A stretch of DNA of 64,000 bases from Escherichia phage pEC-M719-6WT.1, in the sequence record OQ845957.1; one strand, 5' to 3'. Positions 5,796 through 57,729 of this stretch are shown here, piece by piece (position 1 is the stretch's first letter; every line of letters begins with the position of its first letter). Position numbers and translations under genes: made by a program. The notes beneath the pieces are model-generated. The model had not been told where the DNA came from and did no database searches. It saw nothing but the letters and a program-made list of their open reading frames with translations.

Positions 5796-6896
5796 TTATT
5801 CATAATCTCGAATAACTAACCCAACAGGGAACTGTAAAGAACCCTTACGAGTCATCTTCTGGAACTGAACCGTTAAAGGTTTCCCGATAAACTCTTCAGG
5901 ATGTTCAGCAAGATACTGTTTCTTCTCATGGGTAGTCTTCCATGAAACATCTACAAAGACATTAGGAAGAGTCTCTACAACGAACTTACCATGACCACGC
6001 TTATCAGTCTTCACACCAGTTACTTTAAATTCCTCTGTGTGCATCTTCTTATGTTTAATCAGGAAGTAAGAACGGTGACCACACTCATAGAAAGAATCTG
6101 CTGAAATGGAACGGTACATTGCCCCTTCAAACTTCAGCTTAACCCAATTATCATGGGCTTTGTCAAACTCTTCCCAAGAGTTAACACGTATAGTTTGAAC
6201 AGGTACAACCTTGCAAGCATCGCCAAGTTCAACGATTGGTGAATTATCAATGATTTCACGTCGCTCAGGCCAAGACTTAGTGCTATCACAGATATCATAC
6301 CAGTAGAACTTAAGAAGGTGACGGTCTGGATTGTCAGCATTCTTAATCATTGAAACAATATCTTCCAAATCCCAACCATGAGCATAAATCTCACCATCGA
6401 AGTCTGCAACTTGTGGATGGCATTTAAGCAGTAAAAGTAAGTCTGGAATTAACTCTTCAGGTACGTTGTACACAGTATTTTCACGGGAATAAGCTGTGAA
6501 GTTCACTGAGTCAACATCTCTTGAAATCCTGCAACGAACACCATCAAGTTTTGGTTGAGCGTCAGCAGGGAATTTCAAATACTTTGCATGACTAACCTTG
6601 GAAGCATCATGAGCAAGCTGTACACCTACCTTTTCAGTATTCTGTGCAGACTCTTTTGTGTAAGCATAACCTTTGCGGTCAACTTGCTTCTTGTACTTAG
6701 CAGCAACTTCAAAGAGAGCTTGCTGTTCAGCGTTACGCTCATTCTTTTTACCGATGTTTTTCGGTTCTGCTGTGTACTCTTCAAACATCATCTTGCCATT
6801 CTCTTTACCATAGGTGGTAACAACTTTGTCACCTACAGCAACACATGACCAGACGTTAAAGGAACCATCTTTATTTTGTTTGTACAGAATTGTCAT
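5796..6896 (-). CDS. ATP-dependent DNA ligase
   Basis: 366 aa; adenylation motif KLDGVRC (KxDG). Confidence 0.7.
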   Translation of the reverse strand: MTILYKQNKDGSFNVWSCVAVGDKVVTTYGKENGKMMFEEYTAEPKNIGKKNERNAEQQALFEVAAKYKKQVDRKGYAYTKESAQNTEKVGVQLAHDASKVSHAKYLKFPADAQPKLDGVRCRISRDVDSVNFTAYSRENTVYNVPEELIPDLLLLLKCHPQVADFDGEIYAHGWDLEDIVSMIKNADNPDRHLLKFYWYDICDSTKSWPERREIIDNSPIVELGDACKVVPVQTIRVNSWEEFDKAHDNWVKLKFEGAMYRSISADSFYECGHRSYFLIKHKKMHTEEFKVTGVKTDKRGHGKFVVETLPNVFVDVSWKTTHEKKQYLAEHPEEFIGKPLTVQFQKMTRKGSLQFPVGLVIRDYE

Positions 6897-8012: not shown

Positions 8013-10718
8013 TCAGTGTACCTCATACCAGCTTTTACCAACCTTACCAGTGCCAGTTACAAGCGTCTCACTCTTCAAACCTAAATTCTTAGATGCCTGA
8101 CCATACATCCAGTCAGTTATAGCTTTAACTTCTTGAGTCATACTTTCTGGGCATTCCCAACTGTTTTCATCGTGGTATGCCAGCAAAAGTCTAGCACCGA
8201 TTGCTGGTTTTCGTCCATTTAATTTTGTCAACCCTTCTTCACATGCCCTTCTACAAGCAAGGTTAATTGCCTCGTTCTGAATCTGGCTTTCCGAACCCAT
8301 GAGCAAATAATTCAATAACTTATGTGGAGATTTACACCACAACCACGCTCCAGCAACCTGAACAAACCCACCTTTAGCAATTGCAGCAGTCTTCCCAAAG
8401 ACCTCTTCAAGAGCCTTCTTAGTCGCTTTAAAATCAGCTTCTAAGTTATCAATCAGTTTCTTAATCTTCGGCAAACGAACAAAGTAAGTCTGCTTAGTCA
8501 ATGCACCTTCCTGAGTAGTTGCTGCTTTAATGGTCTTAGCAAACTTCTCATCACCTGCACCGAACAGCAGTGCATAGATACCATTCTTAGCTTTCTTACG
8601 ACCCTTACTAATCTCGTGAAGAAGATTTTCATCCTGTGTCATACGACAAGTCAAGATATCCTGCTCATCATTCAAGCTAAAGTAAATACTGTTCAGCGTG
8701 TGAGCATCAGTACCTGAATAAACTACGTACAAGTCGTTTTCAGAGTCATAACGCAGATACTTGTCAATTTCTGGATTAAGGTATTCGTCAAAGTGTTTGC
8801 AGTAATAGCGACCATCTTCTTGACGAATAAACTCAACCTCTTCCTTACCTTCTGTTACCGCTTTGGTGAACTCTTTGTCACCCATAAAGTTACACAGTAG
8901 AACAAGCTGTGCAGAGTTCATATCAACAGATACTACGTTGGTTCCCTCTTCACAAATCCAGACTGCCCTCATTGGTTCACCGTAAACAGCAGCACCAGAA
9001 GGTACGTTTACAATACCATATTGTGTCATACGACCAGTTGAAGTACCAAACACCATTGCACCAGCACTTAAACGACCATCTGGACGAATCTGGTTCAACC
9101 AACCTTTCTCATCATCCTTTGAGTTCTCAATAGTTCTGCGTCGGTGCATCAAAGTATAGTACTTCGCAATCTTCTGCCCAAGTTCACCTTCGATGGTATC
9201 ATAAGAAGATTCAGTCAGTTTTGGTGAAGTACGAATCAAGCAAGGTTCAAGCACATCTGTGTATTTCTTCACAGACCAATTATGCTCGATGTACTGTACC
9301 CCTTCATGCTCAACATAGTTTAAACCGCAGCGTTCAACCATTTCATCCCACTTAGGATGTTTACGAATCATCTTCTTATTATCTTTGAAGCGACAAACCT
9401 TAACAGGACGACCATCTGAGTCTTTCTTGTAGTTCCAATCATCAGGAATCCAACCAACAGATTTCAGATACTCTTTAACTACTGCAACCTGAGTCATGCG
9501 TGAAACTTCAAACTCAATTGGTGTATATGGTGCATCAATCAAACCTGTGTAACGACTTGACTCAAGTTCAAAGTGATTAACAACATGATTGTTGTAGTAC
9601 TTGACAGTCTTAACAGTTTTAACTGGCTTCCAATCTTTGCACTTCTTGTCAACCTTCGCATTTAGCTCATTACATACTGCACGAGCATCTTTCATTGCCA
9701 CGAAACCTTCTTTGTACTCTTCTCCGGTTACCGTGTTAGTTGGTGTGTAGCAGTTACGTTTCTCTACGCTGAAAATCTTGGTAGTTGGTTTACCAAATGG
9801 CTTAATAGGATAACTTTGCATTTCCCCATTACGAACCTGCTGACGATACTTTGTCTTAGGATACTTGGTAATGCGTTTCAAACCATCTGCTTCACCAAAA
9901 GTTTCAACATACTCATTCCAAGCTTTTGCAAATTCTTCACCAGTAACTTTCCCTTTTGTCTTGATAGTTGGTGGTAAGAATGGCTCAACATCTGAAGCAA
10001 GGTCAGCAGTCATCTTATCAAGCTCTTTAACACAACTCTTCATCATGTTAATGTCAGCTTTCCAACCATTGATAGCTTGCTGGCTCATCCAGAAAGATGT
10101 TTCTTTAGCTCGCATGTAGGTTTCGTAGGTATCCACACCACACTTCTTCAGCTTCACATACTCATTATCAAGGGCACGTTTAGTTTTGGCGTTGATTCGA
10201 ATATCCTCAACAACACGAGTTAAGATTTCAGCGTTCCAAACTCCCCACTCTTCAATCTCAGGCTTACGGACACCGACACGAGCACCCCATGCAGCCAAAC
10301 CATGAGAACCTTTGTAACCTTTAGGTGTAGGTCTGTCCATCCACTGAACACGAGATTGGATAAGTGAATCTTGTAAGAAATTACCCCAAGGTTTGCATTT
10401 AGGGTTATCAAAGTTCCACAGGTCAGGTGCAATGTGGTTGAACACCCACCAGTCATAACCAAGACCATTGTGAATGCAAAGACGTTTCGCCTTTAAAGCA
10501 AACTCAACACCTTCTCTCAAGCCACCCTTGATATACTTGGTGTACTTGTGACCAAGAATAGGCTCATCAGTGAATACCCACACAGGTGGTTCGTCACTGT
10601 CATCTTTGTAATCTGCAAAAGCCATTACGTGAGCTTTAGTGAACTCAAGCAGTAATCCGTCAGTTTCTGTATCGCCTACCAGATGCAAATTTTTAAAGTC
10701 TACGTTTTCCATTTCCAC
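8013..10718 (-). CDS. DNA polymerase, family A, with 3'-5' exonuclease domain
   Basis: 901 aa; N-terminal Exo motif VGDTETDGL and HNGxxYDWWVF resemble T7 gp5/Pol I exonuclease motifs. Confidence 0.85.
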   Translation of the reverse strand: MEMENVDFKNLHLVGDTETDGLLLEFTKAHVMAFADYKDDSDEPPVWVFTDEPILGHKYTKYIKGGLREGVEFALKAKRLCIHNGLGYDWWVFNHIAPDLWNFDNPKCKPWGNFLQDSLIQSRVQWMDRPTPKGYKGSHGLAAWGARVGVRKPEIEEWGVWNAEILTRVVEDIRINAKTKRALDNEYVKLKKCGVDTYETYMRAKETSFWMSQQAINGWKADINMMKSCVKELDKMTADLASDVEPFLPPTIKTKGKVTGEEFAKAWNEYVETFGEADGLKRITKYPKTKYRQQVRNGEMQSYPIKPFGKPTTKIFSVEKRNCYTPTNTVTGEEYKEGFVAMKDARAVCNELNAKVDKKCKDWKPVKTVKTVKYYNNHVVNHFELESSRYTGLIDAPYTPIEFEVSRMTQVAVVKEYLKSVGWIPDDWNYKKDSDGRPVKVCRFKDNKKMIRKHPKWDEMVERCGLNYVEHEGVQYIEHNWSVKKYTDVLEPCLIRTSPKLTESSYDTIEGELGQKIAKYYTLMHRRRTIENSKDDEKGWLNQIRPDGRLSAGAMVFGTSTGRMTQYGIVNVPSGAAVYGEPMRAVWICEEGTNVVSVDMNSAQLVLLCNFMGDKEFTKAVTEGKEEVEFIRQEDGRYYCKHFDEYLNPEIDKYLRYDSENDLYVVYSGTDAHTLNSIYFSLNDEQDILTCRMTQDENLLHEISKGRKKAKNGIYALLFGAGDEKFAKTIKAATTQEGALTKQTYFVRLPKIKKLIDNLEADFKATKKALEEVFGKTAAIAKGGFVQVAGAWLWCKSPHKLLNYLLMGSESQIQNEAINLACRRACEEGLTKLNGRKPAIGARLLLAYHDENSWECPESMTQEVKAITDWMYGQASKNLGLKSETLVTGTGKVGKSWYEVH

Positions 10719-11393: not shown

Positions 11394-12194
11394 ATGAAAA
11401 CTGTAAATGAAATGCTGGCAGAAAAGAACATCAACGAACAATTCCTATTAACTACTGTGGAAAGCCTTGCTGTAATTTTCCGTAGCAATACTTTCACTTC
11501 TGGCTTTATGCCAGAATCACTTAAAGTTACAGATATTGACAGTGACGAATCTTTCCGCTCAACTGTAGAGTTGCTTACCAGCAATCGTAAAATTGCTCTG
11601 GCCTCTATCGTTGTTGGTGTTGACTCTCTGGCTAAATTTCTGTTTGAGAACATGCAGAGTGGTGATTACTCTAGCATGGATGAACAAAGCATTAATATGC
11701 TGCTTAACGAGATGACTGAACAGCAAATGGTAATGGGTATTGTTGGTGGAGTATCAAGTGTCATGGCTATGCTGGAAAAGCGTATGGAAGATAAATCTTC
11801 ACGCTATGACAAACTTGATTGGGGTTTCAATGTAATTTCTGAACGTGCTAAAGCGCTGGCTATTGAAACTTACCAGAAACTGGAAGACTTGACTAAACAG
11901 GATGTAGACATTAAACTTGATGACATTCAGGTGATGGTCACTGCTCTGACGCCTGCAATTATGGTTATCATGAATATTCACGCAATTCTTGAAGTTGCAG
12001 ATTTGCTGAAGTCTCCACCTTCTTTCATTGAAGAAGTCAGTGGTGGTGCAAGTGTATCTGCTTTACAAGATGTTCTTATGCAGACTAACGTAGCAATTGT
12101 ACGTGAGAAAATTGCCATTAACTTTGGTGATGAGTTCTTGCAGCAGATTGAAGCAATGGCTGAAAAGAACGGTGAAGCTATTACAATCCACTAA
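11394..12194 (+). CDS. hypothetical protein
   Basis: 266 aa ORF, good RBS. Confidence 0.35.
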   Translation: MKTVNEMLAEKNINEQFLLTTVESLAVIFRSNTFTSGFMPESLKVTDIDSDESFRSTVELLTSNRKIALASIVVGVDSLAKFLFENMQSGDYSSMDEQSINMLLNEMTEQQMVMGIVGGVSSVMAMLEKRMEDKSSRYDKLDWGFNVISERAKALAIETYQKLEDLTKQDVDIKLDDIQVMVTALTPAIMVIMNIHAILEVADLLKSPPSFIEEVSGGASVSALQDVLMQTNVAIVREKIAINFGDEFLQQIEAMAEKNGEAITIH

Positions 12195-12211
12195 TTGTTA
12201 ATACCCAAATA

Positions 12212-12235
12212 GCCTCCTTAATTGGGGGCTTTTTA
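12212..12235 (+). terminator. intrinsic terminator
   Basis: GCCTCC..GGGGGC hairpin plus TTTTT. Confidence 0.45.
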
Positions 12236-12252
12236 TTATGGAGAGACTAAGT

Positions 12253-12993
12253 ATGAAAAGTATTATTGCATTCACTGGTAAGGCTCGTTCTGGAAAAGAC
12301 ACTTCCTGTACTCTGGTAAGAAATGCCTTGACTGAGAAAGGTTACGAAGTTAAAGTTTTTGCGTTTGCAGATAACCTTAAAAACACTGCTGGAGATATCT
12401 TCAACCTGACTTGGGAAGATTTGTATGGAGACACAAAAGAAACTCCACAGGTCTTCACACTGACTCATGCAGCACTGTCTTCACAGGTTATTTGGGCTTT
12501 TTTCAGACACATGCAAGATAAGAATATCCATAAGGATTCAAAACTGTGTGGTGAATTAACCGATAAACTAATCAAAGAACTGAAAAAGGTTGGTAAACCA
12601 ACATTACTCACCAGACTCGGCTTGCGTAATGAATATAAAGTCTCTTCACGTCAAATCCAACAAGTTTGGGGAAGTGAAGTTGTCCGTAAAATCTTGGGTG
12701 AAAGGTTCTGGATTATTGACTTAGCAGAACGCATGGAGAAGTTCTTTGGTGAATGCCATACAGAAGACCATGAAGGTATTGCACTAATCTGTGATTTAAG
12801 ATTTGACATTGAGGCTGAGTTTCTGCAAAGTTATGACAGTCAAATCATTGAGGTGAAGAGAAGCAACGCTACACAAGTTGCTTCACATCATTCTGAGAAA
12901 GGTATTTCAACCTTATTTGAGCGTGACATTATTCAAAACAATGGCACAGTTGATGAGCTTGAAAGTAAATTAAAAGCTATCGTTGGAATTTAA
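12253..12993 (+). CDS. deoxynucleoside monophosphate kinase-like P-loop kinase
   Basis: P-loop FTGKARSGKDT at N-terminus; start placed at internal ATG after GGAGAG RBS. Confidence 0.5.
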   Translation: MKSIIAFTGKARSGKDTSCTLVRNALTEKGYEVKVFAFADNLKNTAGDIFNLTWEDLYGDTKETPQVFTLTHAALSSQVIWAFFRHMQDKNIHKDSKLCGELTDKLIKELKKVGKPTLLTRLGLRNEYKVSSRQIQQVWGSEVVRKILGERFWIIDLAERMEKFFGECHTEDHEGIALICDLRFDIEAEFLQSYDSQIIEVKRSNATQVASHHSEKGISTLFERDIIQNNGTVDELESKLKAIVGI

Positions 12994-16555: not shown

Positions 16556-16571
16556 CGTATTGGAGATACAA

Positions 16572-17612
16572 ATGGAAAAGTACACGTTAACAAAACTCCC
16601 AGATACTGTGACACATGTCTTTATTGACTCTGACAGCATCGCTTACAAGGGAGCCTGTGTCGTTGAGAAAGCAAAGTACAAGTATGTGAATAAACTCACT
16701 GCTGAAGGGTCTGATGCCTTTGAAAGTGCTAAAGATGCTAATCAATGGCTATCTGACCAGAGAGTTCTGACAGAGGAACTTGGTCTTGCATTCGATGAAG
16801 ATGAATGGGAAAGACAATCTTGGAAAGAAGCAAAGAGTGAGAAAGAAGCTATTATGGCAACTCAACAAGTTCTTCAGGAATGGTTGAAAGTTGTCGGTAA
16901 AGAACGAACTTGGATGGGATACCTCACTGAGAAAGGTGTACATAAACACAAAGACATTAAAGGTCTTGAACACCAGTATCAAGGTAACCGTAAAGAATCA
17001 GTAACCCCTACGCATTTAGTTGCTTGTCGTGAGTATCTTCTGTCACGACCTGAGTTTAAGCTTCTCAAAGGTGGCTTTGAAGCTGACTCCATTGTTATTG
17101 CAAAAGCTGAGAAGATGGGTAAGAAGGCTGCTCTTATGAGCATTGATAAAGACCTTCGCCAAGCGGAAGGAACTTACTGTATTGATATGACTTACGAGAA
17201 AGCCCCTCTTATTTTCATTGCAGATGGTAACGTAGGTAATATTTGGGATTGCCCTATCAAGTCTAAGCCGAAAGCTAAAAAGACTGTTGGTGTAGGCTTC
17301 AAATTCCTCTGCTATCAAGCTGTAGCAGGAGATAACGCAGATAACTACTTTGGCCTTAAGGGTGCAGGGAAAGTTGCTGTAATGAATGCTCTGGAAGGTA
17401 AAGAGACCTATAAAGAATGCCTTGATGCTATCTATGAACTTTACGCTAAGAAAGAGTCATACACTTATGAATCGTGGGATGGTCAGGTGATTACAAGAAC
17501 ACCTCTTGAACTGATGCACCAGCACTTCTGGATTGCCTATCAAGAGCGTAACCCTAAAGATGATTTCACCTTTGCTAAATATGGTTGGGAGCCTGTTATG
17601 AATGAAGATTAA
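16572..17612 (+). CDS. flap endonuclease / 5'-3' exonuclease
   Basis: FEN-like segments VFIDSDSIAYKG, SIDKDLRQ and GDNADNYFGLKGAG; start at ATG after GGAGA RBS. Confidence 0.55.
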   Translation: MEKYTLTKLPDTVTHVFIDSDSIAYKGACVVEKAKYKYVNKLTAEGSDAFESAKDANQWLSDQRVLTEELGLAFDEDEWERQSWKEAKSEKEAIMATQQVLQEWLKVVGKERTWMGYLTEKGVHKHKDIKGLEHQYQGNRKESVTPTHLVACREYLLSRPEFKLLKGGFEADSIVIAKAEKMGKKAALMSIDKDLRQAEGTYCIDMTYEKAPLIFIADGNVGNIWDCPIKSKPKAKKTVGVGFKFLCYQAVAGDNADNYFGLKGAGKVAVMNALEGKETYKECLDAIYELYAKKESYTYESWDGQVITRTPLELMHQHFWIAYQERNPKDDFTFAKYGWEPVMNED

Positions 17613-52849: not shown

Positions 52850-52880
52850 ATAAAAAAAAAAAGGCTCCCGAAGGAGCCTC
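52850..52880 (-). terminator. intrinsic terminator downstream of endolysin gene
   Basis: GGCTCC-TTCG-GGAGCC hairpin with long T-run on minus strand. Confidence 0.55.
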
Positions 52881-52888
52881 TGAATATA

Positions 52889-53353
52889 TTACTTTGGATA
52901 TACAGCGTCAAGATAAATTTTTGCTTCCATTCTACGTCTGTTTGTCAGACCCTTAGAAGGTACTTTCTTACCTTTGACCGTAATCTTGTTCCACCATTGC
53001 ATAGCTTCTGCACATCCAACTTTATCTCCAGCATTATGACGCTTGATAAATGTTGAGGTTTGCATAGCTGCAATACCAATGTTATAAGTCTCAATGACAA
53101 GAGCATCAAACTCATTCTGTGTAGTAGGAACTTTAATCGCTCTTGCTACAGCACCAATGTAGTTTTCAACATCTGCCAGAAGATACTGTTCAGCTTGTTC
53201 AGCAGTAATCTTCATACCCATAGTTACTGGTTTTCCGTGGATACGGATTGTACCATACCCGATTGTAGGAATCCCAGCGGAGTCTGGATATGCTTCTAGC
53301 TCAAGCCCTTCAAAGAACTTGATAGCATCAAGACCTTTCTGTGAGAGCCTCAT
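52889..53353 (-). CDS. endolysin, lysozyme-like
   Basis: 154 aa; FEGLELEAYPDSAGIPTIGYG resembles catalytic region of T4/lambda-type phage lysozymes. Confidence 0.65.
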   Translation of the reverse strand: MRLSQKGLDAIKFFEGLELEAYPDSAGIPTIGYGTIRIHGKPVTMGMKITAEQAEQYLLADVENYIGAVARAIKVPTTQNEFDALVIETYNIGIAAMQTSTFIKRHNAGDKVGCAEAMQWWNKITVKGKKVPSKGLTNRRRMEAKIYLDAVYPK

Positions 53354-54240
53354 TATTCACCTCCAACTACATTAACGACAACTGTTGCGGTATTTGAAGT
53401 AACACTTCCACCAGCACCAGTTACAACACATGTGTAAGCTCCTGCATCATCAGCAGTTGTTGCATTTTCTTTAGTATACGTTGCAGATGTAGCAGAAGGG
53501 ATGTTCACATTGTCTTTCTTCCACTGGTAACCAGTTGCACCAGTAGCTGTGATACTCAGGTTAAGAGTTTCACCTTCGTTGATAGTCTGATTAGTTGGTT
53601 GGACAGTGATTACAGGTAGTGCATTTACAGTTACTGTAGCTGCATCAGAAGTTACACTTGAGCCACCTTCACCGGAAACTACACAGGTGTATGAACCAGC
53701 ATCATCAGGAACTACAGAGTTTTTTGTGTAGGTTGCAGAAGTTGCACCGGAGATGTTAGAAGCACCCTTCTTCCACTGGTAACCAGTAGCATTTGAAGCA
53801 ACAACCTGTAGAGTCAGGGTATCACCTTCATTAACCGTCTGGTCAGTTGGCTGTGTAGTAATTGTTGGAGGCACTACAGCATCTTTCAACTTAGCATTCA
53901 GCATAGAGAAAGGTTTAACTCTTGCAAGCCATTCACAGTAAACGGTGTCAACATCTTTACCATTGATAATTGCATATTGCAAATCCATGAAGAAGTCAGC
54001 AGTCCTCATCTGTGAGCCAATTGCATATAGCAACTCTTCATTAAATGGAACGTCATAGTCTGGAACGTATGTGAAGTTTGTCACTTCAGCAATATCAGCT
54101 TCAGGCCAAGGTGAACTGTATGTGAGTGGCAATACAGCAGCTTGGTAAGTTCTGAAGTCATATCTTTTACCAGCTTTAACATTCGCAATAAAAACTTTCA
54201 CGAATTCTTTAAAGTCTGGATATGTTTTTGCTTTAATCAT
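53353..54240 (-). CDS. protein with two Ig-like domains and N-terminal domain paralogous to upstream gene
   Basis: Two repeats containing GYQWKK...ATYTK...DAGxYTCVV (Ig I-set-like); N-terminal ~110 aa aligns with ORF 54237-54605. Confidence 0.45.
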   Translation of the reverse strand: MIKAKTYPDFKEFVKVFIANVKAGKRYDFRTYQAAVLPLTYSSPWPEADIAEVTNFTYVPDYDVPFNEELLYAIGSQMRTADFFMDLQYAIINGKDVDTVYCEWLARVKPFSMLNAKLKDAVVPPTITTQPTDQTVNEGDTLTLQVVASNATGYQWKKGASNISGATSATYTKNSVVPDDAGSYTCVVSGEGGSSVTSDAATVTVNALPVITVQPTNQTINEGETLNLSITATGATGYQWKKDNVNIPSATSATYTKENATTADDAGAYTCVVTGAGGSVTSNTATVVVNVVGGE

Positions 54241-54605
54241 TTATTAGCCTCTAATCTAGCATTTAATCTAAAATAACCTCTGTGGCGAGGGGAAGCATCA
54301 CCAACCACAATGCCACCAATCTTATAACCTTTCCCCATGACGTATTGAATATCCATTAAGAAAGTCCCAAGGCCAACAATGTGAAACATTGGGTAAAGTA
54401 ATTCTTCAGAATCTGGTAAGTCAATTACAGGGGTATAATTAAAGGTGTTTAGAGTGGGGTTGATATCTTCTTCAGGCCATTGGCTATCACGCCATGTTAA
54501 GGGTGTTGGAAGTACATCATCAAGATTATACCTTTCACCTTTTTGAACACTTTGAACATAAGATTGTAGGAAGCAGTAAAAGTCCTTTCCACTCTTTGCT
54601 TTCAT
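54237..54605 (-). CDS. hypothetical protein, paralog of N-terminal domain of downstream Ig-like protein
   Basis: Shared blocks (PDSEELLYP/PFNEELLYA, FLMDIQYVMGKG/FFMDLQYAIINGK). Confidence 0.35.
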   Translation of the reverse strand: MKAKSGKDFYCFLQSYVQSVQKGERYNLDDVLPTPLTWRDSQWPEEDINPTLNTFNYTPVIDLPDSEELLYPMFHIVGLGTFLMDIQYVMGKGYKIGGIVVGDASPRHRGYFRLNARLEANK

Positions 54606-54648
54606 TATCTTTCCTTAACAAAGAAAAGGGGCTTTCACCCCAAATCAC

Positions 54649-55239
54649 TTAAGCCATAGTCTTAAGCATGTTTTTAAGTTTTTTGAGATTCATAGCCTCA
54701 TCTAACTCAAATCCAAATCCATTGACATACTCAATGAAATCAGATTTCTTACTCAGAGAGAGTGCATAACTCATATCAAAGTCATTACTAGGAGTTGACT
54801 CTGGAGAAGTGTTCACATCGAAAGAAATCTCAGTGGCTGTTGATTCTTCATCTCTCATGTTATCAATTACAACACATGTATAGTTGGCTGGAGAGAAGTT
54901 TGTTGAACCTTCCACATAGCTATACTTTTCGTTGTGAATAAGGTTTGAGAATACCTTGAAGAAAGTTTCAGAATCGTGGCAGACGAGTTTAAATTCACTC
55001 TTTCCACCAAGAGCCATAAGTGAATATGGGTTTTCACCATCAATGTTATAAGCAGGGTTCATACACTGAACTGTCACACGCATGAGGTTGTTTGTGATAG
55101 TCTTCTGTTTAAAAGAATTAGGAACGTAGTGCATACCTCTTCCACACTGATTAACTAATTCTTTTAGAAGGTCATCGGAGTATGGCGAAGTGATAGATAC
55201 AGACCCATCACCATTATAATTAAAACTTACATTTAACAT
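54649..55239 (-). CDS. hypothetical protein
   Basis: 196 aa ORF. Confidence 0.3.
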   Translation of the reverse strand: MLNVSFNYNGDGSVSITSPYSDDLLKELVNQCGRGMHYVPNSFKQKTITNNLMRVTVQCMNPAYNIDGENPYSLMALGGKSEFKLVCHDSETFFKVFSNLIHNEKYSYVEGSTNFSPANYTCVVIDNMRDEESTATEISFDVNTSPESTPSNDFDMSYALSLSKKSDFIEYVNGFGFELDEAMNLKKLKNMLKTMA

Positions 55240-55466
55240 TTGTTAGTTCTCCTACGATTAATAATTTTGCTGCAATAGAGAAATGAAGCAAATTCACTGG
55301 AAGAAACCATTAAAACTTGTTCACTAGATTGAGCTACAGCCCTGAAGTAAATTGCTGTCAAAGCATCATAGTGTTTATTCTTTCCTACTGAAGTGAAATA
55401 TCCATGACTCTTTGCAGTTTGATACAAATCTATAATATCTGTGATTTCTAATTGGGAGCTACACAT
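55233..55466 (-). CDS. hypothetical protein
   Basis: 77 aa ORF. Confidence 0.3.
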   Translation of the reverse strand: MCSSQLEITDIIDLYQTAKSHGYFTSVGKNKHYDALTAIYFRAVAQSSEQVLMVSSSEFASFLYCSKIINRRRTNKC

Positions 55467-55858: not shown

Positions 55859-56233
55859 ATGACCAAAAGAACAAACAAAGGCCAATTCAAAAAAGGCCAA
55901 TCTGGTAACCCATCAGGGAGACCAAAAGGTTCCCGTAACAAGAGTTCTCTTGTAAAAGCCCAATTAACCATTGACAACTCAGCAGAGTTTGCTGCAAAGT
56001 TGTTTGAAGCAATCGTCACCAGAGACCCTGTAAAGCTTGCAGAGTTTGGTCTTTCACCAAATGATGTTCAGCTAAAATCCATGATGGAGGCTGGTAAGGT
56101 CATCATGACCCACTCAGCAGGTGAGATGAAAGCTATTGCGGTTGATAACAAGAAGAACCCTGATAATGTCGGGGGTAATACTCCACAGGAGAATAAACCA
56201 ACGTTCTCTCCAGTGGCAGCGATTAAAAGATAA
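55859..56233 (+). CDS. hypothetical basic protein
   Basis: N-terminal KGQSGNPSGRPKGSRNK motif; 124 aa. Confidence 0.3.
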   Translation: MTKRTNKGQFKKGQSGNPSGRPKGSRNKSSLVKAQLTIDNSAEFAAKLFEAIVTRDPVKLAEFGLSPNDVQLKSMMEAGKVIMTHSAGEMKAIAVDNKKNPDNVGGNTPQENKPTFSPVAAIKR

Positions 56234-56313: not shown

Positions 56314-57729
56314 ATGAGCGAATTATTTAACCACTCAAACCTTCATCAAGGTCGTACTGAAAATGGTGCTGTAAACCACACCTCTTCAATGTCAGCCTTG
56401 GTAGACTTCTACAAAGCTGCTGGCTCTAGCCGCAACTACGTAGAGAAACTTCCAAATCTTTTCTACAAAGCTTTACGGGAAGATATTGATGTTGCTGTAC
56501 GAATCCTGCTTCATATGCGAGATGCACGAGAAGGTATGGGTGAGCGTAAAGCGTTCAGAACTGTTTTGACTGAATCCATCAAAAGCAACATCCTAGACTC
56601 TTTCCAAGTTCTACGTATCATGGAAAAGATTTCTGAACTAGGCCGTTATGATGACTTTAAAATCTTCGTAGGTACTCGATACGAAACAGATGCTTTCAAA
56701 CAACTTGAAGCAGCACTGTTAGACCCTAATACTGCACAGTTAGCTGCAAAGTGGTTACCAAGGGTTAAGCGTCGTCATATGAACTTTGTAAACCGCTTCT
56801 GTAAGTTTGCAAAGCTAAGTCAGAAAGAGTACCGACTGTTACTGTCAGCCTTGTCTGATACAGTTGAGCAGAAGATTTCTGCAAATGCTTTTGGAGAGAT
56901 TGATTACAGTAAAATCCCTTCACTGGCTGCTGCACGTTACCAGAAGCTTTTCGGTCGTAAAGATGGTGAGCGTTACAAAGCATACATTGAAGCTCTTACT
57001 AAAGGTGAGACCAAGATTAATGCTGGTGCAGTTTACCCATACGATGTGATTAAGTCAGTAAATTACGGAAACGCTACAGTTGCCAATGAACAATGGAAAG
57101 CTTTACCAAACTGGATGGCAGATGGTGAAAACATTCTCTGCATGACAGACGTATCAAGCTCTATGACTTGGGAAAGACACGGTGCAGTTACTGCTTTAGA
57201 CATTGGTGTATCACTTGCATTGTACGTAGCAGAACGCAACACAGGTTGTTTTAAAGATGAGTTAATGGTTTACTCCAGCAGACCTCACTTTATTACACTG
57301 AGTGGAGATTTAGCACAACGTAAGCGTCAGGTAATGTCTCATGTTGAGTATGGTTCAACTAACCTTCAAGCAGCATTTGACAGAATTCTTGAAATTGGTG
57401 TTAAAAATGGCTTGACACAAGAAGCTATGCCAAGTAAGCTTATTATCTTCTCTGATATGGAATTCAATCAGGTTGATGGTGCAAATGGCCTTACTAACTT
57501 TGAAGCAATTCAGAGTAAGTACAAAAAAGCTGGATATGAGATGCCACAACTGGTATTCTGGTACTTAGCTGACCGTAACGGTAATTGCGAAGTGTCTGTA
57601 AAGGATAACGGAGTAGCAATGGTTTCAGGTTTCTCTCCAGCCACCTTAAAAGCTTTGCTTGGTGGTGAGAAGTTTGACCCAATTAGCGTTATGCTTAAAG
57701 CAGTTATGATTGAGCGTTACGACTGGTAA
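56314..57729 (+). CDS. vWA (MIDAS) domain protein with N-terminal helical domain; possibly Ro60/TROVE-like
   Basis: C-terminal MIDAS-like motif CMTDVSSSM; ~270 aa helical N-terminal region; domain order matches Ro60-type proteins (architecture only). Confidence 0.45.
   Translation: MSELFNHSNLHQGRTENGAVNHTSSMSALVDFYKAAGSSRNYVEKLPNLFYKALREDIDVAVRILLHMRDAREGMGERKAFRTVLTESIKSNILDSFQVLRIMEKISELGRYDDFKIFVGTRYETDAFKQLEAALLDPNTAQLAAKWLPRVKRRHMNFVNRFCKFAKLSQKEYRLLLSALSDTVEQKISANAFGEIDYSKIPSLAAARYQKLFGRKDGERYKAYIEALTKGETKINAGAVYPYDVIKSVNYGNATVANEQWKALPNWMADGENILCMTDVSSSMTWERHGAVTALDIGVSLALYVAERNTGCFKDELMVYSSRPHFITLSGDLAQRKRQVMSHVEYGSTNLQAAFDRILEIGVKNGLTQEAMPSKLIIFSDMEFNQVDGANGLTNFEAIQSKYKKAGYEMPQLVFWYLADRNGNCEVSVKDNGVAMVSGFSPATLKALLGGEKFDPISVMLKAVMIERYDW

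Follow-up and report, generated by a model that had tools for sequence, protein, structure and literature searches.

The closest described relatives of the genes treated here are gp20 of phage Sf14 and Hex-Dec of phage Bas63, both of which have been solved on capsids by cryo-electron microscopy (cryo-EM) (PMC11821841, PMC12609058). A gene of this type, called L in the following, lies in a 64,000-nucleotide stretch of Escherichia phage pEC-M719-6WT.1 (record OQ845957.1; the whole stretch is referred to as the window), where it is preceded by a shorter gene, S, and followed by an endolysin gene. In the two solved proteins, a capsid-binding domain (CapBD) of ~118 residues at the N-terminus occupies hexamer centres of the T=9 head as a monomer. 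Binding is restricted to pentamer-adjacent hexamers, and the 20 that lie on true 3-fold axes stay free (PMC11821841, PMC12609058). In Sf14, Arg79 and Arg107 form salt bridges to Asp221 of the major capsid protein (PMC11821841). The immunoglobulin-like (Ig-like) domains, of which relatives carry one to four, are flexible and absent from the maps, and a Hoc-like role in adhesion or sensing has been proposed by both structural groups (PMC11821841, PMC12609058). The Felix O1 counterpart, gp36, has been seen in virions by mass spectrometry with 44% coverage (PMC3185647). According to the Bas63 authors, the decoration gene and the structural module are separated by more than 10 kb (PMC12609058).

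The DNA of the region is ~80–83% identical to that of Moogle-, Susp- and Felix O1-like myophages, and the window belongs to an Ounavirinae (Felix O1/Moogle-like) myophage; S shows 100% identity to a protein recorded for pEC-M719-6WT.1. On its minus strand, S, L and the endolysin gene form one block of three closely packed genes. The reading that we consider rather probable as a whole is that L is a decoration protein of the Hex-Dec type, and that S is a paralog consisting of the CapBD alone, which serves as an accessory and is not part of the virion. The members of the block and the domains of L are as follows (ORF, open reading frame):

54237..54605 (-): ORF-S, 122 aa; Ig-less paralog of the decoration protein, predicted to consist of the CapBD only; phrog_4463; orthologs Felix O1 ORF37, Sf14 gp21, Bas63 bas63_0125 and VpaE1 gp40
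53353..54240 (-): ORF-L, 295 aa; Hoc-like hexamer-centre capsid decoration protein, by homology; phrog_3995 (3e-161); orthologs Sf14 gp20, Bas63 Hex-Dec and Felix O1 gp36
53881..54240 (-): CapBD of L, residues 1-120, from the alignment to residues 1-120 of 9c2d_S and 9ncf_S
53623..53874 (-): Ig-like domain 1 of L (I-set/Ig_3), residues 123-206, from Pfam and repeat comparison
53368..53622 (-): Ig-like domain 2 of L (I-set/Ig_2), residues 207-291, from Pfam; 66% identical to domain 1
52889..53353 (-): GH24 endolysin (Phage_lysozyme, 1.7e-38); phrog_7; third gene of the S-L-lysin block

The decoration protein L and its paralog S

Over residues 1-290, L matches the solved chains of Bas63 Hex-Dec (9ncf_S, E 7e-238) and Sf14 gp20 (9c2d_S/9c3a, E 3e-169) in a phmmer search of the PDB. 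Its CapBD is ~87–88% identical to theirs and keeps both Arg79 (SQMR(79)TADFF) and Arg107 (WLAR(107)VKPF), as in the Sf14 and Bas63 chains. The two Ig-like repeats with a GYQWKK...DAGxYTCVV signature, which a sequence-only reading of this DNA had pointed out, are recognised by Pfam as two stretches each of Ig_3 (7e-22), Ig_2 (1e-18) and I-set (6e-15). The repeats (residues 123-206 and 207-291; 66% identity, E 5e-35) share the motif ATGYQWKK...SATSATYTK...DDAG(S/A)YTCVV. The gene lies directly upstream of that for the GH24 endolysin, as in relatives of the group. L thus possesses every feature of the Ounavirinae Hex-Dec/gp20 proteins that was tested, namely the CapBD, Arg79 and Arg107, the tandem Ig domains and the locus. 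By homology, L is an already known Hoc-like head decoration protein in a two-Ig form and nothing new in itself; its type of structure was published in 2025, and L adds another two-Ig variant.

With high confidence, L is expected to decorate the head in the manner known from Sf14 and Bas63. By homology to the solved structures, its CapBD would sit as a monomer in the pentamer-adjacent hexamer centres of a T=9 capsid, anchored in part by contacts of Arg79 and Arg107 with Asp221 of the major capsid protein. The two flexible Ig-like domains would project outward and, by analogy with T4 Hoc, might adhere weakly to surfaces or glycans. In many GenBank and UniRef records, L and at times S are labelled "tail protein" or "putative tail protein", and Felix O1 gp36 was first named "major tail protein". 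That both are tail proteins is nevertheless hardly tenable. In cryo-EM structures the L orthologs are found on capsid hexamers, which already refutes the tail assignment for L, and the Bas63 authors consider the "tail protein" annotation wrong (PMC12609058).

The major capsid protein of the phage is not encoded in the window: a tblastn search with Felix O1 gp58 against the 64 kb gave no match, and the head module lies outside. Two ORFs considered as capsid protein candidates were dismissed. The one at 5796-6896 (-), with 366 aa, is a DNA ligase (PDB 6imj, E 2e-7), and the one at 16560-17612 had no match in the PDB. As an observation on L itself, Ig domain 1 (53623-53874) shows 98% protein identity to Shigella phage Silverhawkium and the CapBD (53881-54240) only 87%. 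This suggests that L may be a mosaic in which recombination swaps Ig modules independently of the anchor.

The sequence-only reading had also proposed that S and the N-terminal part of L are paralogs with shared blocks, and this has been borne out. BLASTP aligns S 1-119 with L 2-119 (42/121 identities, 35%; E 2e-17), taking in the blocks PDSEELLYP/PFNEELLYA and FLMDIQY/FFMDLQY. The alignment also holds with profile methods. S matches phrog_3995, the family of L, at 1.9e-14, and L matches phrog_4463, the family of S, at 6e-16, while hhalign joins an S-only and an L-CapBD-only profile over 116 columns with 98.8% probability (E 1.1e-16). Across 11 S and 8 L sequences, 33 columns are invariant. 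Judged from these alignments, S and the first ~120 residues of L are true paralogs. S ends at residue 122, which is the end of the CapBD, and carries neither an Ig nor another display module and no Pfam domain; DUF1182 was rejected, as its score in S (17.6 bits) lies below the Pfam cut-off of 25. In the PDB, the only match of S is the N-terminus of gp20/Hex-Dec (E 6e-14 and 3e-10), and no chain corresponds to S itself. A structure model of S based on a multiple sequence alignment of S alone is poor (predicted local distance difference test score, pLDDT, of 52) and matches only gp20/Hex-Dec; another model of S reaches a pLDDT of 65. Homology and predicted fold thus suggest that S shares the CapBD of gp20/Hex-Dec.

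What separates S from L is concentrated in a few places. There are 36 type-II columns, invariant in S and invariant in L yet different between them, and these cluster at S74-79, 89-100 and 103-112. The anchor loop of L, G-A/S-Q-M-R79-T, is replaced in S by an invariant hydrophobic PMFHIVGLG, with Gly throughout at the position of R79. Where L and the single-copy relatives described below all have K-P-[F/Y], S has K/R-G-Y, and the position of R107 is occupied by Q, H or R. S is therefore devoid of the residues by which L would be anchored to the capsid (Arg79 and the Arg107/K-P-F motif). Other polar residues are invariant in both paralogs (K2, K4, D8, R25, E45, D47, D85, Q87 and N115). The isoelectric point of S ranges from 5.1 to 9.1 among orthologs, whereas that of the L CapBD is uniformly acidic (5.0–5.5). 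This pattern argues for a re-specified binding surface rather than drift. With no display module and no anchor residues, S is best filed as a paralogous offshoot and not as a decoration protein.

Distribution, origin and role of S

By tblastn, the family occurs in 252 phage records, all of them enterobacterial Ounavirinae, and full-length S and L are found together in 232. The remaining ~20 records (about 8%) have L only; they include mio, REP5/7/8/11, SP116 and fBSPA4. In mio, S is a decayed remnant: it has lost its start codon and about 220 nt and contains further indels; the upstream hairpin and the ribosome-binding site of L remain. Among the blastn matches listed, the match of every S-less genome starts at the same query position, which fits a single loss event. 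Since S is a decayed pseudogene in mio and in about 20 other genomes, it appears to be dispensable.

The sequence-only reading had considered the position of the pair beside the endolysin unusual. It is no oddity, because this order is the rule in about 250 genomes: S, L and endolysin follow each other in 232 of the 252 related genomes, and a CapBD gene is followed by a lysozyme gene even in remote single-copy relatives. Such relatives were obtained with an exhaustive profile search of 1.84 billion representative proteins, which returned only 12 hits, with E values of 1e-9 to 7e-5 for the remote CapBD proteins. One pair among the hits consists of P0097, of the S type with 122 aa, and P0098, of the L type with a CapBD and two Ig domains. 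It fits two neighbouring genes of 122 and 298 aa on a metagenomic contig of 87 kb, with P0098 as the putative product of the 298-aa gene; the order there is a 195-aa gene, S, L and lysozyme. The S of this lineage is only 47% identical. Five remoter members are single-copy. In these, the CapBD is fused to Big_2 (P0099, P0100), to an I-set Ig domain (P0101) or to a Big-like domain (P0103), or carries only a Lys/Ser-rich tail (P0102). Where a genomic context is available, it consists of DUF2828/vWA, DUF5681, a ~185-aa gene and the CapBD gene, and then lysozyme. As the display module is swapped among these remote relatives, the CapBD would seem to be a modular capsid anchor. Such a portable anchor with interchangeable modules (I-set Ig, Big_2, Lys/Ser-rich tail) bears on phage-display engineering with T=9 heads.

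According to a hidden Markov model scan of all ORFs in the fetched loci, the CapBD gene is duplicated in the Felix O1/Moogle group and in the 87-kb lineage only; the other loci have a single one. A neighbour-joining tree separates S and L into reciprocally monophyletic clades, each of which includes the divergent 87-kb lineage. L is 35–41% identical to the single-copy outgroups and S 26–27%. S also diverges faster within its clade, with 47% identity to the 87-kb lineage against 56% for L, and 76% to Felix O1 against 87% for L. The tree, the outgroup identities and the faster divergence of S imply an old duplication with an asymmetric outcome, in which L would have kept the ancestral job and S would be derived. 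The S/L duplication is thus lineage-specific, and S is an old tandem copy that comprises no more than the CapBD.

One record looked like a natural knockout of L, that of vB_SflM_004 (MK295205.1), and was discarded. Its 196-aa gene, L (in three pieces), endolysin and DUF5681 gene are all split, most likely through frameshift errors of the assembly and not for biological reasons. A Felix O1-type S and L, with 77% identity, also occur at 143193-143558 of GU169904.1 (Staphylococcus phage SA1, 147 kb), a record that probably contains enterobacterial Felix O1-like sequence.

S is well conserved where it is present. The ratio of non-synonymous to synonymous substitution rates (dN/dS; Nei-Gojobori, seven genomes) amounts to 0.117 for S over 15 pairs. 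The L CapBD has 0.042, Ig domain 1 has 0.10 and the endolysin has 0.08; all values are approximate, as dS is near saturation for deep pairs. Across 23 cluster representatives, 73 of the 122 positions of S are invariant. Microarrays of Felix O1 show the maximum for ORFs 36 and 37 at 60 min, together with the structural genes (PMC3185647). Low dN/dS, invariance and late transcription in Felix O1 speak for S as a real, late-expressed gene, evidently kept by purifying selection. That S is a decaying, functionless remnant of the duplication is accordingly very improbable. It is a pseudogene in ~20 of the 252 genomes and no function is known for it, but its dN/dS of about 0.12 is close to that of the endolysin, so that the selection data effectively refute a remnant. 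Moreover, 232 genomes carry an intact S, as does a lineage with only 47% identity, and the gene has a good ribosome-binding site.

Several observations speak against S as a component of the virion. The shotgun list of Felix O1 virion proteins contains gp36 and proteins of 9.7–13.7 kDa, but not gp37, the S ortholog (PMC3185647). For VpaE1, 22 virion proteins are reported, and only gp54, gp58 and gp68 among them are without a counterpart in Felix O1 virions; from this text and its annotation as "hypothetical", the S ortholog gp40 can be deduced to be absent. Both cryo-EM studies explicitly describe the hexamers left free by Hex-Dec as devoid of density (PMC11821841, PMC12609058). On the available evidence, S is most likely not in the virion, or not stably so. 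The likeness to decoration proteins of the capsid or tail, which the sequence-only reading had seen in both genes, has thus held for L, and for the capsid rather than the tail. For S it is not supported, as the protein occurs neither in the two capsid models nor in the virion proteome of Felix O1 nor, by deduction, in that of VpaE1.

S may still act at the capsid or elsewhere in the infected cell. The class of explanation that we prefer, and to which we give an even chance, is that S is a non-virion, dispensable, late accessory with a re-specified surface. As such, it would be expressed late inside the infected cell, with an altered CapBD surface and no stable part in the virion. A role linked to L or to the hexamer centre is favoured because the S stop overlaps the L start and the adjacency of the genes persists over deep divergence. 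S would then bind weakly or transiently to hexamer centres of the major capsid protein or to Hex-Dec during head assembly or maturation, and be a placeholder, competitor or chaperone; this specific mechanism is put forward tentatively. In its most pointed form, S would be a "blank" capsid-site protein, derived from the anchor domain of a decoration protein but without a display module, and either a transient plug or placeholder on hexamer centres (for instance of procapsids or of the 20 three-fold hexamers) or a competitor or chaperone that determines the place and time of Hex-Dec attachment. We regard this form as doubtful; if true, S would be the first regulatory paralog to be described for a head decoration protein of a phage. 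Alternatively, S may have a role unrelated to the capsid of its own phage, such as an interaction with a host factor or the part of a decoy for a host defence sensor, with only the fold of the CapBD kept. Although rather unlikely, this would agree with the asymmetric and accelerated divergence, the 36 family-specific invariant switches, the invariant hydrophobic loop in place of the charged anchor loop of L, the variable net charge, and the non-virion and dispensable nature of S. However, the location of S immediately upstream of L, with overlapping stop and start across deep divergence, argues for a function linked to L, and the 33 invariant columns shared with L, many of them polar, suggest a shared interaction beyond the core. 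Moreover, S showed no similarity to defence or anti-defence families (PADLOC was not searched), the sub-threshold DUF1182 being its only Pfam match.

The observations on the capsid also bear on S as a second, Ig-less decoration protein of low occupancy, which would occupy the 20 three-fold hexamers or compete with Hex-Dec at some sites and so tune the density of the Ig fibres. S and the CapBD are predicted to have the same fold, and S is co-expressed late with L. The 3-fold hexamers are unoccupied in both structural papers, and the Sf14 study attributes this to a shifted geometry of Asp221 (PMC11821841), so that a paralog with an altered anchor loop might in principle be accommodated. Against this stand the missing density on these hexamers in either study, the failure to detect S in Felix O1 virions in which smaller proteins were detected (and, by deduction, in those of VpaE1), and the decay of S in about 8% of genomes without an evident compensating change. 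S is thus probably not a second decoration protein, and this explanation is an unlikely one.

Some points weigh against the preferred view of S as a re-specified accessory outside the virion. The negative results from virion proteomes depend on thresholds, as the Felix O1 list gives only proteins with at least 25% coverage and the VpaE1 result is deduced from text, and the Sf14 table lists modelled proteins only. In icosahedrally averaged maps, a monomer on a true 3-fold hexamer would be smeared out. Three of the five remote single-copy CapBD proteins (P0100, P0102 and P0103), which are presumed capsid binders, lack R79; loss of R79 alone is therefore no proof of lost capsid binding. The models of S are of moderate to low confidence (pLDDT 65 and 52), and its role is a proposal. 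The Sf14 and Bas63 papers neither mention the neighbouring S gene nor use the word "paralog" (PMC11821841, PMC12609058), and a literature search for a paralog of an Ounavirinae decoration protein found nothing.

S, a conserved, selected and late-expressed copy of the anchor only, adjoins Hex-Dec in hundreds of genomes of the Felix O1 type, among them both with solved capsids. If it touches the capsid or Hex-Dec, it may help to explain why Hex-Dec is found on only 60 of 80 hexamers, or the timing of its attachment. Otherwise, S would be a clear example of a structural domain recruited to a non-structural function.

Gene layout and neighbourhood

The stop codon of S and the start codon of L share the sequence ATGA, an overlap that suggests translational coupling of the two genes. 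L and the endolysin gene overlap by one base (TAATG). A programmed frameshift producing an S-L fusion was also considered, but no canonical slippery heptamer could be read at the ATGA overlap. The signals read around the block are:

54628..54641 (-): short G+C hairpin GGGGTGAAAGCCCC with a T-run behind it, immediately 5' of the S ribosome-binding site
54609-54616 (-): S ribosome-binding site AAGGAAAG, read from the sequence
52860..52881 (-): strong hairpin with a T10 run, resembling an intrinsic terminator, 3' of the endolysin gene; closes the S-L-lysin block

The upstream hairpin, with a GGGG-loop-CCCC structure and T-run, lies between a 196-aa gene and S. Its stem is kept, with a different loop, in Felix O1 and in the S-less mio. 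It could be a weak terminator, or an element for RNA stability or processing ahead of the S-L-lysin block. No promoter is claimed, as a scan for sigma-70 promoters found 7 where 9.1 are expected in shuffled sequence.

The 196-aa gene (54649-55239, -; phrog_4034) and a 77-aa gene (55233-55466, -; phrog_5064) are both located upstream of S. They are syntenic with the CapBD gene across all lineages examined, though without known function; a remote homolog with 185 aa has a faint match to Phage_Inh_N. A DUF5681 gene (55859-56233, +) and a vWA-like DUF2828/DUF7788 gene (56314-57729, +) adjoin the locus, followed by a cluster of tRNA genes. The latter of the two is labelled "RNA-binding protein" in Sf14 and Felix O1, and both adjoin the CapBD-lysozyme locus even in remote single-copy lineages.

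The ORFs past the endolysin, which the sequence-only reading had described as a block of unknowns, matched no Pfam family. In the equivalent block of the 87-kb relative, a gene of the Gad1 family (anti-Gabija) is located ~4 kb downstream of the lysozyme gene, at 11510-12369 in locus L008 and 8967-9826 in locus L009. None of the 8 ORFs scanned in the block of the window matched Gad1.

Comparison with known systems

To our knowledge, neither T4 nor T5 has a counterpart to S: we know of no CapBD-only paralog in T4 and of no paralog of pb10 in T5. T4 Hoc is the functional model for L. Like Hoc, which is non-essential and for which adhesion or sensing has been proposed, the type of protein to which L belongs sits as a monomer at hexamer centres and bears a string of Ig-like domains. 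However, the capsid-binding domain is C-terminal in Hoc and N-terminal in L, and the two domains are topologically distinct and without sequence similarity (PMC12609058). The PHROG profiles for "Hoc-like head decoration" match only residues 116-291 of L, its Ig region. L is functionally akin to T4 Hoc without belonging to the Hoc family.

T5 pb10 has the same domain order as L, and two PDB entries named "Decoration protein", 8zvi_a and 5lxk_A, which we take to be pb10, match the Ig region of L (E about 1e-10). Only residues 216-290 of L are covered by this match, no similarity was detected between the capsid-binding domains, and pb10 has a single Ig domain. On this comparison, L would not belong to the pb10 family either.

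The remote single-copy proteins (P0099-P0103) have a homologous CapBD and, where context is available, the same neighbourhood; they differ in being encoded by one gene and in their swapped display module. The closest known system is that of Sf14 gp20 and Bas63 Hex-Dec (PDB 9C2D, 9C3A, 9NCF). L has the same CapBD with R79 and R107, the Ig domains after the CapBD, and the gene order S-L-endolysin. It differs in the number of Ig domains, two against three in Sf14 and four in Bas63, which lies within the known range of one to four. S shares with these proteins the predicted fold and the 33 invariant residues, and is set apart from them by the absence of a display domain, of Arg79 and of K-P-F, and by its absence from the solved capsids.

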